Source of the DNA: a virus
Taxonomy: Duplodnaviria; Heunggongvirae; Uroviricota; Caudoviricetes
Virus record (IMG/VR): IMGVR_UViG_2534682001_000016
Length of the DNA stretch: 5,089 nucleotides
Direction: 5' to 3' (one strand)
Below the pieces are notes generated by a model. The model did not search any database. It was not told the DNA's origin and saw nothing but the letters and a program-made list of their open reading frames with translations. The translations under genes and the position numbers were made by a program. This document shows positions 1 through 5,089 of the stretch, in pieces (the stretch's first letter is position 1; every line of letters starts with the position of its first letter).

Positions 1-121
1 CAATCTTTGGGGCAATGGAACAAATTGCCGCCCACTGTGAGTCATATTCATCCTGACTTTCCAGAACCATACGAATCGCCCGCTGACGGACTTCGGGGGA
101 AAAACGAGTATTTTTAGTCAT
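1..121 (-). CDS. IS3-family transposase OrfA (helix-turn-helix N-terminal part), 5' partial in window: start codon at 119-121 on the minus strand, continues beyond position 1
   Basis: Minus-strand translation from the ATG (complement of 119-121) gives [40 protein letters not shown], 40 codons. This matches the remembered N-terminus of IS629/IS1203-type OrfA. A purine-rich AGAGG lies a few nt upstream on the minus strand. Not in the supplied ORF track because it is under the length cutoff and truncated. Confidence 0.85.
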
Positions 122-175
122 CCTGTTTACCTCTTTCTCAGGGAGTTTAGTCTCCAGGATTTCCGGGGCGGTTCA
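1..175 (-). mobile_element. Terminal portion of an IS3-family insertion sequence (IS629/IS1203-like), truncated by the window edge; element terminus at about position 175
   Basis: Seen in sequence: the reverse complement of 121-175 reads TGAACCGCCCCGGAAATCCTGGAGACTAAACTCCCTGAGAAAGAGGTAAACAGG followed by ATG. It begins with the 5'-TG characteristic of IS3-family ends and leads straight into an OrfA-type transposase N-terminus. Established knowledge (from memory, not searched): IS629-type elements end in TGAACCGCCCCGG and encode OrfA starting [15 protein letters not shown]. The exact boundary (175) is inferred from the TG terminus. Confidence 0.8.
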
Positions 176-178
176 TTT

Positions 179-202
179 GCCCCGGTTATCCGGGGCTTTT
201 TT
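179..202 (+). terminator. Putative intrinsic (rho-independent) terminator-like hairpin: GCCCCGG / TTAT loop / CCGGGGC followed by TTTTTT
   Basis: Seen in sequence: perfect 7-bp GC-rich inverted repeat at 179-185 and 190-196 with a 4-nt loop, followed immediately by six T at 197-202 on the + strand. Function is inferred from the structure only. Confidence 0.5.
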
Positions 203-215
203 GCAGGTGGAGAAC

Positions 216-605
216 ATGATGTTTCTGAAACAGGGCACGTTTAATTATGAAAAGCAGTCCGTGGTGCTCAGTGAGCTGTCCGGGCTGCAGAGAATTGAAT
301 ATCTGGCGTTTGTTCAGCAGCGAACGGCAAAGTTTGATGCCGAAGAGGGAGAACTGCCGGAGGCTGAACGACAGATTGCTTTTCTGCGGATGGGGATGGA
401 TATCAATGCTTGGCTGGTTTCCCGCTCACTGTGGAATGCGGAACAGTCTCAGGATGTTGAGACGCTTTGCGCATCCGTTATTACAACATGGTCGTATGAT
501 GCCCTGGGAGCGGGGGCGGAGATGGTTCTGTCGCTGAGCGGTATGGGAGCCATTGAGAATGCCGGGGATTTGGAGCATGAGGTGCTGACGCCGGAAAAGT
601 CCTGA
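216..605 (+). CDS. G: Tail assembly chaperone, lambda gpG homolog
   Basis: ORF-track frame 177-605, which opens on TTG; the first ATGs are the tandem pair at 216 and 219. A Shine-Dalgarno-like AGGTGGAG sits at 205-212, so 219 has the better spacing and 216 is the longest ATG start. Product begins MMFLKQGTFNYEKQSVVLSELSGLQRIEYLAF, resembling lambda gpG (which starts MFLK). Stop TGA at 603-605. Position immediately upstream of a T-frame ORF and the tape measure gene matches the conserved G/GT/H arrangement. Confidence 0.88.
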   Translation: MMFLKQGTFNYEKQSVVLSELSGLQRIEYLAFVQQRTAKFDAEEGELPEAERQIAFLRMGMDINAWLVSRSLWNAEQSQDVETLCASVITTWSYDALGAGAEMVLSLSGMGAIENAGDLEHEVLTPEKS

Positions 606-943
606 CGCGGGAAATGCAGTTTGTCATGCGGCTTGCCCGGGAGTTCCGGCGGGCAGACTGGCGGCGGATGCTGTCGGAAATGTCGGCCACTGAGCTTGGT
701 GAGTGGGGCGATTATTTCCGGATGCAGAGCTTCAGTGATGTGTGGATGGATGCGCAGTTTGCCTCGCTGAAGGCATTGATCGTGAGAATGGTGTCCGGTA
801 GCAGTGATGCTGCGGTGGCTGATTTCAGCCTTTTACCGGAAGAGAACGGGATACCGGAGCGAACGGACGAAGAACTGATGCATCTTGGGGAAGGTATTTC
901 CGGAGGTGTGCGTTATGGACCAGATAGCCAACCTGGTCATTGA
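216..943 (+). CDS. T: Tail assembly chaperone fusion protein gpG-T, made by programmed -1 ribosomal frameshift near 593-599; the T part has no independent start requirement
   Basis: Seen in sequence: the G frame (codons start at positions divisible by 3) ends with ACG CCG GAA AAG TCC TGA at 588-605. The -1 frame is open from 581 (preceded by TGA at 578-580) through the stop TGA at 941-943, so the open overlap is 581-602. Candidate slippery heptamer G GAA AAG at 593-599. Established knowledge: lambda makes gpGT by a -1 shift at G GGA AAG near the end of G (Levin, Hendrix and Casjens), and this is conserved across long-tailed phages. The ORF-track entry 614-943 is the T-frame segment from its first internal Met. 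Confidence 0.72.
593..599 (+). promoter_or_regulatory. Candidate -1 programmed frameshift slippery site (G GAA AAG) for G-T synthesis
   Basis: Seen in sequence at 593-599, inside the only window (581-602) where both the G frame and the T frame are open. It differs from the lambda heptamer GGGAAAG by one base (GGAAAAG). The A-site AAG to AAA re-pairing is canonical; the P-site GAA to GGA re-pairing needs a G:U pair at the middle position. Confidence 0.55.
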
Positions 944-3900
944 TTTGGGGATTGATGCGGCAGAGTTTAAAAATGAAATTCCCCGTATCAAAAACCTTCT
1001 GAATGGTGCAGCCAGCGATGCAGAACGGTCTTCTGCCCGTATGCAGCGTTTTATGGAGCGTCAGACTCAGGCCGCCCGGCAGACAATGCAGGCGGCTTCT
1101 TCGGCTGCAACAGCCGCATCCGTCCATGCGCAGACGGTGGAGAAGAGCGCACAGGCTCATGAACGCATGGCCCGCGAGGTGGAGCAAACCCGCCAGCGTA
1201 TGGAGGCACTGAGCCAGAAAATGCGCGAGGAACAGGCGCAGGCCATGGCTCTGGCGGAGGCTCAGGATAAAGCGGCTGCTGCGTTTTATCGTCAGATTGA
1301 CAGTGTGAAACAGGCCGGTGCGGGGCTGCAGGAATTACAGCGTATTCAGCAACAGATCCGACAGGCCAGAAACAGTGGCGGGATTGGTCAGCAGGATTAT
1401 CTGGCGCTGATTTCTGAGGTTACGGCGAAAACCCGTGTTCTTACACAGGCTGAGGAAGAGGCTACCCGACAGAAAGTGGCGTTTATCCGTCAGCTTAAAG
1501 AGCAGGCAACCCGCCAGAATCTTTCTTCTTCTGAGTTGCTTCGTGCTAAGGCTGCCCAGCTGGGGGTAAGCAGTGCTGCAGAAGTGTATATCCGCAAAAT
1601 GGAGCAGGCAGGAAAAGCCACGCATTCGCTGGGTCTGAAAAGTGCAGCAGCCCGTCAGGAGATAGGCGTTCTGATAGGTGAACTGGCCCGCGGCAATTTA
1701 GGTGCGCTGAGGGGATCCGGAATAACGCTGGCTAACCGTGCCGGGTGGATAGACACACTGATGTCACCGAAAGGCATGATGCCAGGAGCGGTTATTGGCG
1801 GTATTGCCGCGGCTGTCTATGGTCTGGGTAAAGCCTGGTATGACGGTCAGAAGGAGGGGGAAGAATTTAACCGCCAGCTGTCGCTGACGGGGCATTATGC
1901 CGGAGTCACTGCCGGGCAGCTGTGGACGCTCAGTCGTGCTATTTCCGGGAATGGTATCACGCAACATGCTGCAGCCGGTGCGCTGGCTCAGGTGGTGGGG
2001 AGTGGTGCATTTCGTGGAAACGATATCGGTATGGTGGCGAGAGCTGCCGCACAGATGGAGCGATCGGTTGGCCAGTCGGTCAGCGATACCATAAATCAGT
2101 TTAAGCGGCTGAAGGATGATCCTGTAAATGCCGCGAAGGCTCTGGACAATGAGCTGCATTTTCTTACTGCCACTCAGCTTGAGCAGATACGCGTCCTTGG
2201 GGAGCAGGGGCGGTCCAGTGATGCTGCACGGATAGCCATGTCTGCACTGGCAGAGGAAACCGGTCGGCGTACTGCGGATATTGATAATAACCTCAATGCG
2301 CTTGGCAGTACGCTGAAGTATCTGTCTGATTTGTGGAGTCGTTTCTGGGATGCGGCCATGAATATTGGTCGTGAAGACTCGCTGGATGAACAGATTGCCG
2401 CTTTACAGGAGAAAGTGTCGCGGGCGAAAAGACTCCCCTGGACGGCATCATCTTCTCAGGTTGAATACGATCAGCAGCGTCTTAACGATCTTCAGGAGAA
2501 AAAACGCCAGAAGGATTTGCAGGATGCAAAAGAGCAGGCAGAGCGGAATTATCAGGAGCAACAGAAACGCCGTAATGCTGAAAATGCTGCACTGAACCGG
2601 ATGAATGAAACGGAAGCAGCACGACATCAGCGTGAAATAGCGCGTATTAATGCCATGCAGTACGCCGATCAGGCTGTCAGGGATGCGGCGATACAACGTG
2701 AAAATGAACGTTACGAGAAAGCCCTGGCATCCGGTAAGAAAAAAACACGCGAAACCCGTAATGATGAGGCCACCCGGTTATTGCTGCAGTACAGTCAGCA
2801 ACAGGCACAGGTGGAAGGACAGATTGCTGCTGCCAGACAGTCAGCAGGCATTGCCACGGAAAGGATGACAGAAGCGCGTAAACAGCTTCTGGCTCTGCAG
2901 CAGCGCATCAGCGACCTGGACGGGAAAAAACTGACGGCAGATGAAAAGAGTGTGCTGGCCCGTAAAGATGAACTGATTCAGGCACTGACGCTGCTGGATG
3001 TAAAACAGCAGGAGCTTCAGAAACAGACGGCACTCAACGAGCTGAAGAAAAAAACAATTCAGCTGACCAGTCAACTGGCTGAAGAAGAGCGCGCTCAGCG
3101 TCAGCAACATGACCTGGATATCGCCACGGTGGGTATGGGTGATCAGCAGCGACAGCGATATCAGGTACAACTGAGTCTTCGCCAGAAATACCAGCAACAG
3201 CTGGAGCAGTTGAGGCGGGATAGTGAGCAGAAAGGGACATATAACACGGATGACTACAGAAAGGCCGAGCAGGCGCTGACGGAGAGCCTGAACCGACAAC
3301 TGAATGAGAATCGCCGTTACTGGCAACAGCTTGAAGTTGTACAGGGTAACTGGAAAAACGGAGTCCTGCGTGCATTTCAGGATTTTACCGTGGATGCAGA
3401 TAATACGGCAGAAACAGCAGAACAGGTGTTCTCGTCAGCCTTCAGCAACATGGGAAATGGCCTGGCAACTTTTGTCACTACCGGCAAACTCAATTTCAAA
3501 TCCTTCACCTCTTCTGTGCTGTCAGATATGGCGAAAATCCTGGCGCAGGCAACCATGATGAAATCGATAAAAGGGATTGGCAGTGTACTGGGATTTGATC
3601 TCAGCAGCCTTTCCCTGAATGCCAATGGGGGGATTTATCAGTCTGCTGATTTGAGTCGTTACAGTGGCACGGTGGTTAACCGTCCGACGTTTTTTGCTTT
3701 TGCAAAAGGCGCGGGTGTGATGGGGGAAGCGGGACCTGAAGCCATTCTGCCATTGCGTCGTGGTGCTGACGGTAAGCTGGGGGTTGTGGCGGATATTGGG
3801 GGTTCAGGTATGGCGATGTTTTCCCCGCAGTACAACATCGAGATCAATAACGATGGCACGAACGGGCAGATAGGTCCGGCTGCCCTGAAGGCGGTTTATG

Positions 3901-3980
3901 ACCTCGGGAAAAAAGCGGCAGCGGACTTTATGCAACAGCAGGCCCGTGATGGTGGTCGGTTAAGTGGAGCATATCGGTAA
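915..3980 (+). CDS. H: Tail tape measure protein (tail length determinant), lambda gpH homolog, about 1021 aa
   Basis: ORF-track frame 885-3980, which opens on TTG; the first ATG is at 915, preceded by GGAGG at 902-906 with 8-nt spacing. N-terminus MDQIANLVIDLGIDAAEFKNE resembles lambda gpH (remembered as MAEPVGDLVVDLSLDAARFDEQ). The C-terminus EINNDGTNGQIGPAALKAVYD...RDGGRLSGAYR is near-identical to the remembered lambda gpH C-terminus. Long Ala/Gln/Arg/Glu-rich predicted coiled-coil body typical of tape measure proteins. Overlaps the end of the T frame by 29 nt. Stop TAA at 3978-3980. Confidence 0.95.
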   Translation: MDQIANLVIDLGIDAAEFKNEIPRIKNLLNGAASDAERSSARMQRFMERQTQAARQTMQAASSAATAASVHAQTVEKSAQAHERMAREVEQTRQRMEALSQKMREEQAQAMALAEAQDKAAAAFYRQIDSVKQAGAGLQELQRIQQQIRQARNSGGIGQQDYLALISEVTAKTRVLTQAEEEATRQKVAFIRQLKEQATRQNLSSSELLRAKAAQLGVSSAAEVYIRKMEQAGKATHSLGLKSAAARQEIGVLIGELARGNLGALRGSGITLANRAGWIDTLMSPKGMMPGAVIGGIAAAVYGLGKAWYDGQKEGEEFNRQLSLTGHYAGVTAGQLWTLSRAISGNGITQHAAAGALAQVVGSGAFRGNDIGMVARAAAQMERSVGQSVSDTINQFKRLKDDPVNAAKALDNELHFLTATQLEQIRVLGEQGRSSDAARIAMSALAEETGRRTADIDNNLNALGSTLKYLSDLWSRFWDAAMNIGREDSLDEQIAALQEKVSRAKRLPWTASSSQVEYDQQRLNDLQEKKRQKDLQDAKEQAERNYQEQQKRRNAENAALNRMNETEAARHQREIARINAMQYADQAVRDAAIQRENERYEKALASGKKKTRETRNDEATRLLLQYSQQQAQVEGQIAAARQSAGIATERMTEARKQLLALQQRISDLDGKKLTADEKSVLARKDELIQALTLLDVKQQELQKQTALNELKKKTIQLTSQLAEEERAQRQQHDLDIATVGMGDQQRQRYQVQLSLRQKYQQQLEQLRRDSEQKGTYNTDDYRKAEQALTESLNRQLNENRRYWQQLEVVQGNWKNGVLRAFQDFTVDADNTAETAEQVFSSAFSNMGNGLATFVTTGKLNFKSFTSSVLSDMAKILAQATMMKSIKGIGSVLGFDLSSLSLNANGGIYQSADLSRYSGTVVNRPTFFAFAKGAGVMGEAGPEAILPLRRGADGKLGVVADIGGSGMAMFSPQYNIEINNDGTNGQIGPAALKAVYDLGKKAAADFMQQQARDGGRLSGAYR

Positions 3981-4309
3981 TGGAGACGTTTCACTGGAAA
4001 GTGCGCCCGGATATGAATGTGGTATCAGAGCCGAAAGTGGTGACAGTGAAGCTGGGCGATGGTTATGAACAGCGTCGTGCGGCGGGACTGAATAACCAGT
4101 TGTCGACTTACAGCGTGACGATACGTGTTCGTAAATGTGAACACCCATCTTTAAAAGCCTTTCTGGAACGGCACGGTGGCGTCCGTGCATTTCAGTGGAC
4201 GCCACCTTATGACTGGAAACCGATCAGGGTGGTTTGTCGTAAATGGTCGGCAAGCGTGGGGGCGCTGTGGGTAACCATAACGGCAGATTTTGAACAGGTC
4301 GTGGCATAG
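3980..4309 (+). CDS. M: Minor tail protein, lambda gpM homolog (tail tip assembly)
   Basis: 109-aa ORF starting METFHWKVRPDMNVVSEPK and ending ADFEQVVA. It matches the remembered lambda gpM (MKTFRWKVKPGM ... WTPPY ... EFEQVV), including the conserved GDGYEQR and WTPPYDWK motifs. The ATG overlaps the H stop in a TAATG arrangement at 3978-3982. Stop TAG at 4307-4309. Confidence 0.93.
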   Translation: METFHWKVRPDMNVVSEPKVVTVKLGDGYEQRRAAGLNNQLSTYSVTIRVRKCEHPSLKAFLERHGGVRAFQWTPPYDWKPIRVVCRKWSASVGALWVTITADFEQVVA

Positions 4310-4318
4310 GAGGCTCTG

Positions 4319-5017
4319 ATGCAGGATATTCCACAGGAAACACATCATGAGACGACACGCCTCACTCAGTCAGCCCAGGCGGTGCTCTGGGAAATCGATC
4401 TGACAGAGGTCGGTGGTGAACGTTATTTTTTCTGTAATGAGCAGAACGAAAAAGGTGAGCCGGTTACCTGGCAGGGGCGGCAGTATCAGGCATACCCCAT
4501 TCAGGGGACGGGATTTGAACTGAACGGCAAGGGCAGTTCTGCCCGTCCGACACTGACGGTTTCTAACCTGCACGGCATGGTCACGGGGATGGCGGAAGAC
4601 CTGCAGAGTCTGGTCGGCGGAACGGTGGTCCGGCGTAAGGTTTACGCCCGTTTTCTGGATGCGGTGAACTTCGTCAACGGAAACAGCGACGCCGATCCGG
4701 AGCAGGAGGTGATCAGCCGCTGGCGCATTGAGCAGTGCAGCGAACTGAGCGCGGTGAGTGCCTCTTTTGTACTGTCCACGCCGACGGAAACGGACGGCGC
4801 TGTTTTTCCGGGACGTATCATGCTGGCCAACACCTGCACCTGGACCTATCGCGGCGATGAGTGCGGTTATCACGGTCCGGCGGTCGCGGATGAATATGAC
4901 CAGCCAACGTCCGATATCACGAAGGATAAATGCAGCAAATGCCTGAGCGGTTGTAAGTTCCGCAATAACGTCGGCAACTTTGGCGGCTTCCTTTCCATTA
5001 ACAAACTTTCGCAGTAA
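4319..5017 (+). CDS. L: Minor tail protein, lambda gpL homolog (tail tip; C-terminal Cys-rich iron-sulfur cluster region)
   Basis: 232-aa ORF with a strong Shine-Dalgarno AGGAGG at 4308-4313, 5 nt before the ATG at 4319. Position after M and before K matches lambda order. C-terminal segment contains five cysteines (TCTW, ECGY, KCSKC, SGCK), consistent with the cysteine-rich region that binds an Fe-S cluster in lambda gpL-type proteins. Stop TAA at 5015-5017. Confidence 0.93.
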   Translation: MQDIPQETHHETTRLTQSAQAVLWEIDLTEVGGERYFFCNEQNEKGEPVTWQGRQYQAYPIQGTGFELNGKGSSARPTLTVSNLHGMVTGMAEDLQSLVGGTVVRRKVYARFLDAVNFVNGNSDADPEQEVISRWRIEQCSELSAVSASFVLSTPTETDGAVFPGRIMLANTCTWTYRGDECGYHGPAVADEYDQPTSDITKDKCSKCLSGCKFRNNVGNFGGFLSINKLSQ

Positions 5018-5022
5018 ATCCC

Positions 5023-5089
5023 ATGACACAGACAGAATCAGCGATTCTGGCGCACGCCCGGCGATGTGCGCCAGCGGAGTCGTGCGGCT
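5023..5089 (+). CDS. K: Minor tail protein, lambda gpK homolog (tail tip assembly; MPN/JAB plus NlpC/P60-type protein), 3' partial: first 22 codons only
   Basis: ATG at 5023 gives MTQTESAILAHARRCAPAESCG, which matches the remembered N-terminus of lambda gpK essentially residue for residue. The ORF runs off the right edge. Not in the ORF track because it is truncated. Confidence 0.85.
   Translation, partial: MTQTESAILAHARRCAPAESCG

Follow-up and report, generated by a model that had tools for sequence, protein, structure and literature searches.

A probable recent, clean insertion of IS629 in the V-G tail-gene spacer of an already-cryptic Sp3-type prophage of Escherichia coli O157:H7 PA11

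The 5,089-bp stretch of viral DNA analyzed here (the window) opens inside one end of an insertion sequence. The best explanation of the whole is, with near certainty, a recent and clean insertion of IS629 into the spacer between the tail genes V and G of an already-cryptic Sp3-type prophage of Escherichia coli O157:H7 PA11, with a likely neutral outcome. The entire window matches the PA11 chromosome (NZ_CP145942.1, positions 5018416-5023504) with 0 mismatches, which bears out the enterohaemorrhagic E. coli background that an earlier, sequence-only reading of this DNA had guessed. In a megablast search of 5,426 complete E. coli genomes, window positions 1-900 gave a single full-length 100% match, PA11; the remaining top matches began at window base 173, in prophage Sp3 of strain Sakai and its counterparts. 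The counterpart of Sp3 in EDL933 is CP-933M. In the sequence of events that we propose, a complete IS629 jumped into the V-G spacer of an Sp3/CP-933M-type lambda-like prophage, duplicating TTT and leaving its orfA-proximal end at window positions 1-175; the prophage was cryptic already when the element arrived. The PA11 sequence, its IS annotation included, is already in RefSeq, and the finding is in this sense an ordinary and known one.

Window positions 1-175 (minus strand, 0 mismatches to PA11) are the left 175 bp of a complete IS629/IS1203 copy. The full element occupies positions 10866-12175 of the PA11 locus (L001) and is exactly 1310 bp long, its remainder lying outside the window, upstream of 1-175. 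The terminal repeat IRL, TGAACCGCCCCGGAAATCCTGGAGA, covers 151-175 on the minus strand, and 22 of its 25 positions agree with the other end. The reverse complement of window 163-175 reads TGAACCGCCCCGG, with the element terminus at base 175; TGAACCGCCCCGG is present at both ends of the element, whose termini are of the TG...CA type within imperfect inverted repeats (22/25). The first 40 codons of orfA, encoding the HTH transposase subunit, lie at 1-121 on the minus strand by translation; they start at an ATG at 121-119 and run off the left edge. The terminus at about 175, the OrfA start at 121 and the direction of reading away from G, all given in the sequence-only reading, proved exact, and the agreement goes far beyond what chance would give. 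Outside the window, the full orfA (L001 12121-11795, 108 aa; Pfam HTH_Tnp_1, E = 2.4e-12) and orfB (L001 11798-10908, 296 aa; Pfam rve, E = 9.3e-28, and HTH_21, E = 3.7e-18) are both intact. They stand in 0 and -1 phases (start offset 323 nt) and overlap at an A6 run, GGAAAAAATGATG. PGAP annotates the pair as one transposase of an 'IS3-like element IS1203 family' (L001 10908-12121, minus strand), with a predicted programmed frameshift and AL1L pseudoknot.

The earlier assignment to the IS3 family, IS629 type, agrees with this annotation and with the matches of the element, 100% identical along all 1310 bp, in E. coli (many chromosomes and plasmids) and Salmonella (one plasmid). The name itself was given by proxy, through 100% identity to copies that PGAP calls IS1203 family, and IS1203 is an isoform of IS629 (PMC3271280). 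The features that define the IS3 family are all found here: a length of about 1.2-1.5 kb, the characteristic ends, two overlapping ORFs, HTH and DDE domains and a duplication of 3-4 bp. In length, ends, ORF phases, the OrfB DDE (rve) domain and the 3-bp duplication, the element is like IS629/IS1203 of EHEC O157:H7 and Shigella; among complete genomes only the site of the insertion is new, and we see no difference in the element itself. A Shigella flexneri plasmid copy of IS629 is 95.6% identical to the PA11 element, which is consistent with the 4-5% divergence between IS629 sub-types, of which an IS1203-like sub-type I has been described for O157:H7 (PMC3271280). The PA11 copy is complete and apparently active, and its transposase genes are intact. 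No evidence speaks against the identity or the anatomy assigned to it.

The manner of insertion can be read from a comparison with the IS-free Sp3 of Sakai, in which the uninterrupted V-G spacer measures 60 bp (TAA-CAGGACGATACTCATCATTTGCCCCGGTTATCCGGGGCTTTTTTGCAGGTGGAGAAC-ATG). To the left of the IS, 10,865 bp of PA11 align ungapped and with 0 mismatches to Sakai Sp3, ending at position 12006 of the Sakai locus (L002); to the right, 4,914 bp align with 0 mismatches, starting at 12004. The two flanks thus have 3 bp in common, TTT; this is the target-site duplication, its left copy at L001 10863-10865 and its right copy, placed by mapping of the Sakai flanks, at window positions 176-178. At the empty site, both of Sakai and of phage Ayreon, TTT occurs once, and in PA11 it stands on both sides of the IS; target duplications of IS629 are 3-4 bp long (PMC3271280). 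A 3-bp overlap of identical flanks is the signature of simple transposition, and by this alignment the event is a simple transposition of IS629 into the 60-bp spacer, with no deletion or rearrangement. The gene order annotated by PGAP in PA11 is V (L001 10102-10845), the IS1203-family transposase and then G (L001 12219). V is the tail tube gene (Pfam Phage_TTP_12, E = 1.2e-66) and ends 20 bp upstream of the far IS end, and the terminase, the portal, the protease/capsid fusion, Z, U and V are all present upstream of the IS.

The sequence-only reading had put the IS end about 40 bp upstream of G (the distance to the two G ATGs, at 216 and 219, is 40-43 bp) and had left two possibilities, a clean insertion between V and G or the deletion or rearrangement of the upstream structural genes. 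The leftward extension that it proposed yielded a second IS end 1310 bp upstream, the TTT duplication and an intact V; positions 1-175 are indeed an IS end rather than native phage sequence. Colinear, identical flanks and the duplication select the clean insertion. Under the second possibility a deletion or rearrangement would have its boundary at the IS, V and the head genes would be missing or moved, and the prophage would be defective for that reason. IS629-mediated deletions are known in O157 (PMC9943667), and of the 47 IS629 copies that four O157 genomes carry, just 21 have matching duplications (PMC3271280). Here, however, V lies 20 bp from the other IS end, with U, Z, the head genes and the terminase directly upstream; the 10,865 bp on that side are colinear with and identical to Sakai Sp3; and the 3-bp duplication is perfect. 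Identical flanks that overlap by TTT refute this reading, to which we give a negligible probability. A 1.3-kb IS now separates the tail genes from what lies upstream, and V and the head genes are otherwise contiguous with them. It might also be argued that the IS was placed here by misassembly of a multi-copy repeat and that the true PA11 locus is empty. The junction is known from a single assembly, and IS629 is multi-copy in each O157 genome. Yet each of the two junctions is exact, the length of the element is 1310 bp to the base, and the flanking 3-bp duplication is single-copy at the empty site; mis-joined repeats would not yield an exact duplication, which makes misassembly very unlikely.

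The junction is rare. With a 160-bp query centered on it and at least 80% coverage, it was found in one of the 5,426 complete E. coli genomes, PA11. Among the matches listed for these genomes there was no same-site insertion in the opposite orientation, and the exact 29-nt junction had 0 matches in IMG/VR. About 1,830 genomes carry the G/T region with no adjoining IS, the V-G spacer itself having been read as empty in Sakai only. One genome with the junction against some 1,830 without an adjoining IS indicates an insertion that is recent and strain-specific and that appears, on this survey, to be private to PA11.

The state of the prophage bears on what the insertion could have changed. As in Sakai, where Sp3 adjoins ybhC, the PA11 prophage is a neighbor of this gene. 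In both strains the integrase carries a frameshift; a truncated bet directly abuts ninE, of the ninE-ninG genes (positions 5614-6497 of a second PA11 locus, L131); the N, cI, cro, O and P genes are absent; and the portal gene is in two pieces (L001 4872-6453 in PA11, L002 6013-7594 in Sakai), a defect of morphogenesis. The lysis genes, the terminase, the tail genes and Q (L131 9585-10274) are intact, Q in both strains. Every PA11 lesion either falls within Sakai-identical sequence or is annotated alike in Sakai. Asadulghani et al. described Sp3 as being without repressor, anti-repressor and replication functions and as defective in integrase, recombination and portal, and in experiments with Sakai the prophage showed no circularization, replication or packaging (PMC2669165). 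As these lesions are common to the IS-free Sakai Sp3, the defects predate the IS: by this comparison, the prophage is cryptic through defects that are older than the IS and unrelated to it. The earlier suspicion of a defective prophage was thus right as to the state and wrong as to the cause, which is neither the IS nor an adjacent deletion. PA11 and Sakai are identical over 15.8 kb on the IS flanks and share gene order, pseudogenes and the ybhC neighbor; they differ in that Sakai has no IS in the V-G spacer. Just beyond the tail fiber genes lies a type III effector gene, nleB2 (L001 24279-24900), with which the cryptic prophage still carries a virulence gene.

To the right of the junction, all on the plus strand, the window holds the tail genes in the lambda-type order that continues from V, namely G-T-H-M-L-K. 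The Shine-Dalgarno-like GGTGGAG of G, at 206-212 by our reading of the sequence, was spared by the insertion, and G keeps this ribosome-binding site as its own. G itself, the tail assembly chaperone (219-605 by PGAP; Pfam Phage_TAC_2, the lambda G family, E = 1.7e-39), has ATGs at 216 and 219 that open a 128-aa ORF, the PGAP start being 219. Frame analysis places the T frame at 581-943 (Pfam Phage_tail_T, E = 3.9e-15), in -1 phase to G, as a candidate G-T frameshift product; the two frames overlap, and a frameshift is predicted. No canonical XXXYYYZ heptamer occurs in the G/T overlap (window 581-605), and the only candidate -1 slip site there is GGAAAAG at 593-599 (CCG GAA AAG), which is read from sequence and differs from GGGAAAG, the G-T slip site of lambda. 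The tape measure gene H follows at 915-3980 (PGAP; Pfam TMP_2 and Tape_meas_lam_C). A mechanical ORF call starts H at a TTG at 885, inside T, whereas PGAP starts it at 915. The minor tail genes M (3980-4309; Pfam Phage_min_tail, E = 1e-39) and L (4319-5017; Pfam Phage_tail_L, E = 1.1e-99) come next, and the window end cuts K, a C40 peptidase gene of which the 5' end lies at 5023-5089 (ATG at 5023; PGAP CDS L001 17023-17766).

Between the TTT copy and G lies a native terminator-like hairpin (179-202, plus strand), identified by a terminator scan and by folding: the arms GCCCCGG and CCGGGGC enclose TTAT and are followed by T6. It has 7 G-C pairs and a UUAU loop, folds with -16 to -18 kcal/mol and is the sole terminator-like site that the scan returned in the first kilobase of the window. 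The hairpin is conserved: in the active phage Ayreon, depositors have annotated the identical sequence as 'terminator', and the features given for mEp460 include a terminator too. The V-G hairpin may fix the proportion of V to the tail genes that follow. The earlier assumption that the late tail operon is normally one long transcript needs amending in this respect, as the hairpin already punctuates the V-G gap in intact relatives. The IS ends 3 bp upstream of the hairpin, and in a transcript that reads through the IS a different pairing is predicted, in both the MFE and the centroid structures: an alternative hairpin at 163-185 (plus strand), in which CCGGGGCGG (163-171) pairs with UUGCCCCGG (177-185) with a predicted pair probability of about 1.0. 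The terminator stem, at the same level of thermodynamic prediction, has a probability of 0.994 at the empty site and of at most 0.003 with the IS. The IS terminal repeat would, in this model, sequester the left arm of the terminator in read-through RNA; this may well be coincidence.

The arm GCCCCGG is identical to part of the terminal repeat of the IS, and IS911 is said to target IR-like sequences. One might thus suppose that the site was not hit at random, that the new junction turns the native V-G terminator into a hairpin that no longer terminates, and that the IS end acts as a built-in antiterminator, offsetting the polarity of the IS itself. We consider this improbable. We collected 113 distinct, unbiased IS629 IRL flanks from IMG/VR and compared their first 30 nt with a control segment at 61-90 nt. 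Across the 113 flanks, neither the folding energy (means of -3.4 kcal/mol in the first 30 nt and -3.6 kcal/mol in the control, p = 0.64) nor the best match to the terminal repeat (6.56 and 6.67 of 13, p = 0.35) differed. A general preference of IS629 for hairpins or IR-like targets was rejected on this lack of enrichment, and the null result agrees with the description of IS629 as having no recognizable target specificity (PMC3271280). The same flanks have weak base biases beside IRL: 44% carry T at +2, and 53% carry G at +5. The sequence CCGGTTATC occurs within 15 nt of IRL in the window and at two unrelated IS629 insertions (L005 and L007); this likeness is probably selection bias, since the BLAST matches were chosen for their similarity to the query. 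Prophages and prophage-like elements contain 62% of IS629 copies (PMC3271280).

What the insertion does to expression was considered from the signals at hand. We found no sigma-70-like promoter that faces outward from the IS end toward G, and no strong intrinsic terminator within the IS on the tail-operon strand, where there is just a weak 5-bp stem (L001 10875-10887). In lambda, Q-modified polymerase resists terminators. By analogy, any late transcript made by Q-modified polymerase would be expected to run across the IS, and if this polymerase reads the late operon, the 1.3-kb separation of V from G would not in itself mean that transcription stops there. The 1.3 kb of IS RNA, antisense and untranslated, would probably expose unmodified polymerase to Rho-type polarity. 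A functional insertion could take one of two forms: it could be polar and so disconnect G-T-H-M-L-K-I-J from V and the head genes, or it could abolish the V-G terminator through pairing of the IS terminal repeat with the left arm, with a change in tail-gene dosage in either case. In favor of such an effect are the untranslated antisense IS that adds 1.3 kb between V and G, the lack of a sigma-70-like outward promoter toward G and the predicted loss of the terminator stem in read-through RNA. We nonetheless regard it as rather unlikely. In lambda, terminators are ignored by Q-modified polymerase; the re-pairing is a thermodynamic prediction; and the prophage has no immunity or replication genes, no working integrase and no intact portal, Sp3 being inert in Sakai. 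In an inert prophage, a change in tail-gene dosage would have no obvious phenotype. For the same reason, the prophage being inert already, the insertion is in all likelihood a passenger that is neutral to selection. Neutrality, Q read-through and polarity are inferred here from general lambda and IS biology.

Comparable intergenic insertions of IS629 are well documented in prophages of O157. In Sp5 an intergenic IS629 lies upstream of the lysis genes (PMC2669165), and phiPA8 has an intergenic IS629 insertion as well (PMC10810198). Both are like the PA11 case in that IS629 occupies non-coding spacer DNA of a lambdoid prophage and leaves the coding sequences whole; they differ in being inducible Stx phages, in which function can be scored, whereas the PA11 prophage is cryptic. 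Another likeness is to lambda r32, in which polarity of an IS2 insertion is reportedly suppressed by antitermination: there, too, an IS lies in a non-coding part of an operon read by an antitermination-modified polymerase. In lambda r32 this involves N and the early operon, and in PA11 it would involve Q and the late operon.

The head and tail modules of the PA11 prophage adjoin each other but for the IS, and the insertion has little wider importance. The predicted re-pairing suggests that the terminal repeat of an IS may rewire an adjoining intrinsic terminator through chance complementarity. Polymorphism in IS629 insertion sites regularly contributes to strain diversity in O157:H7 and is exploited for typing, and the PA11 insertion could serve as a marker of its strain.
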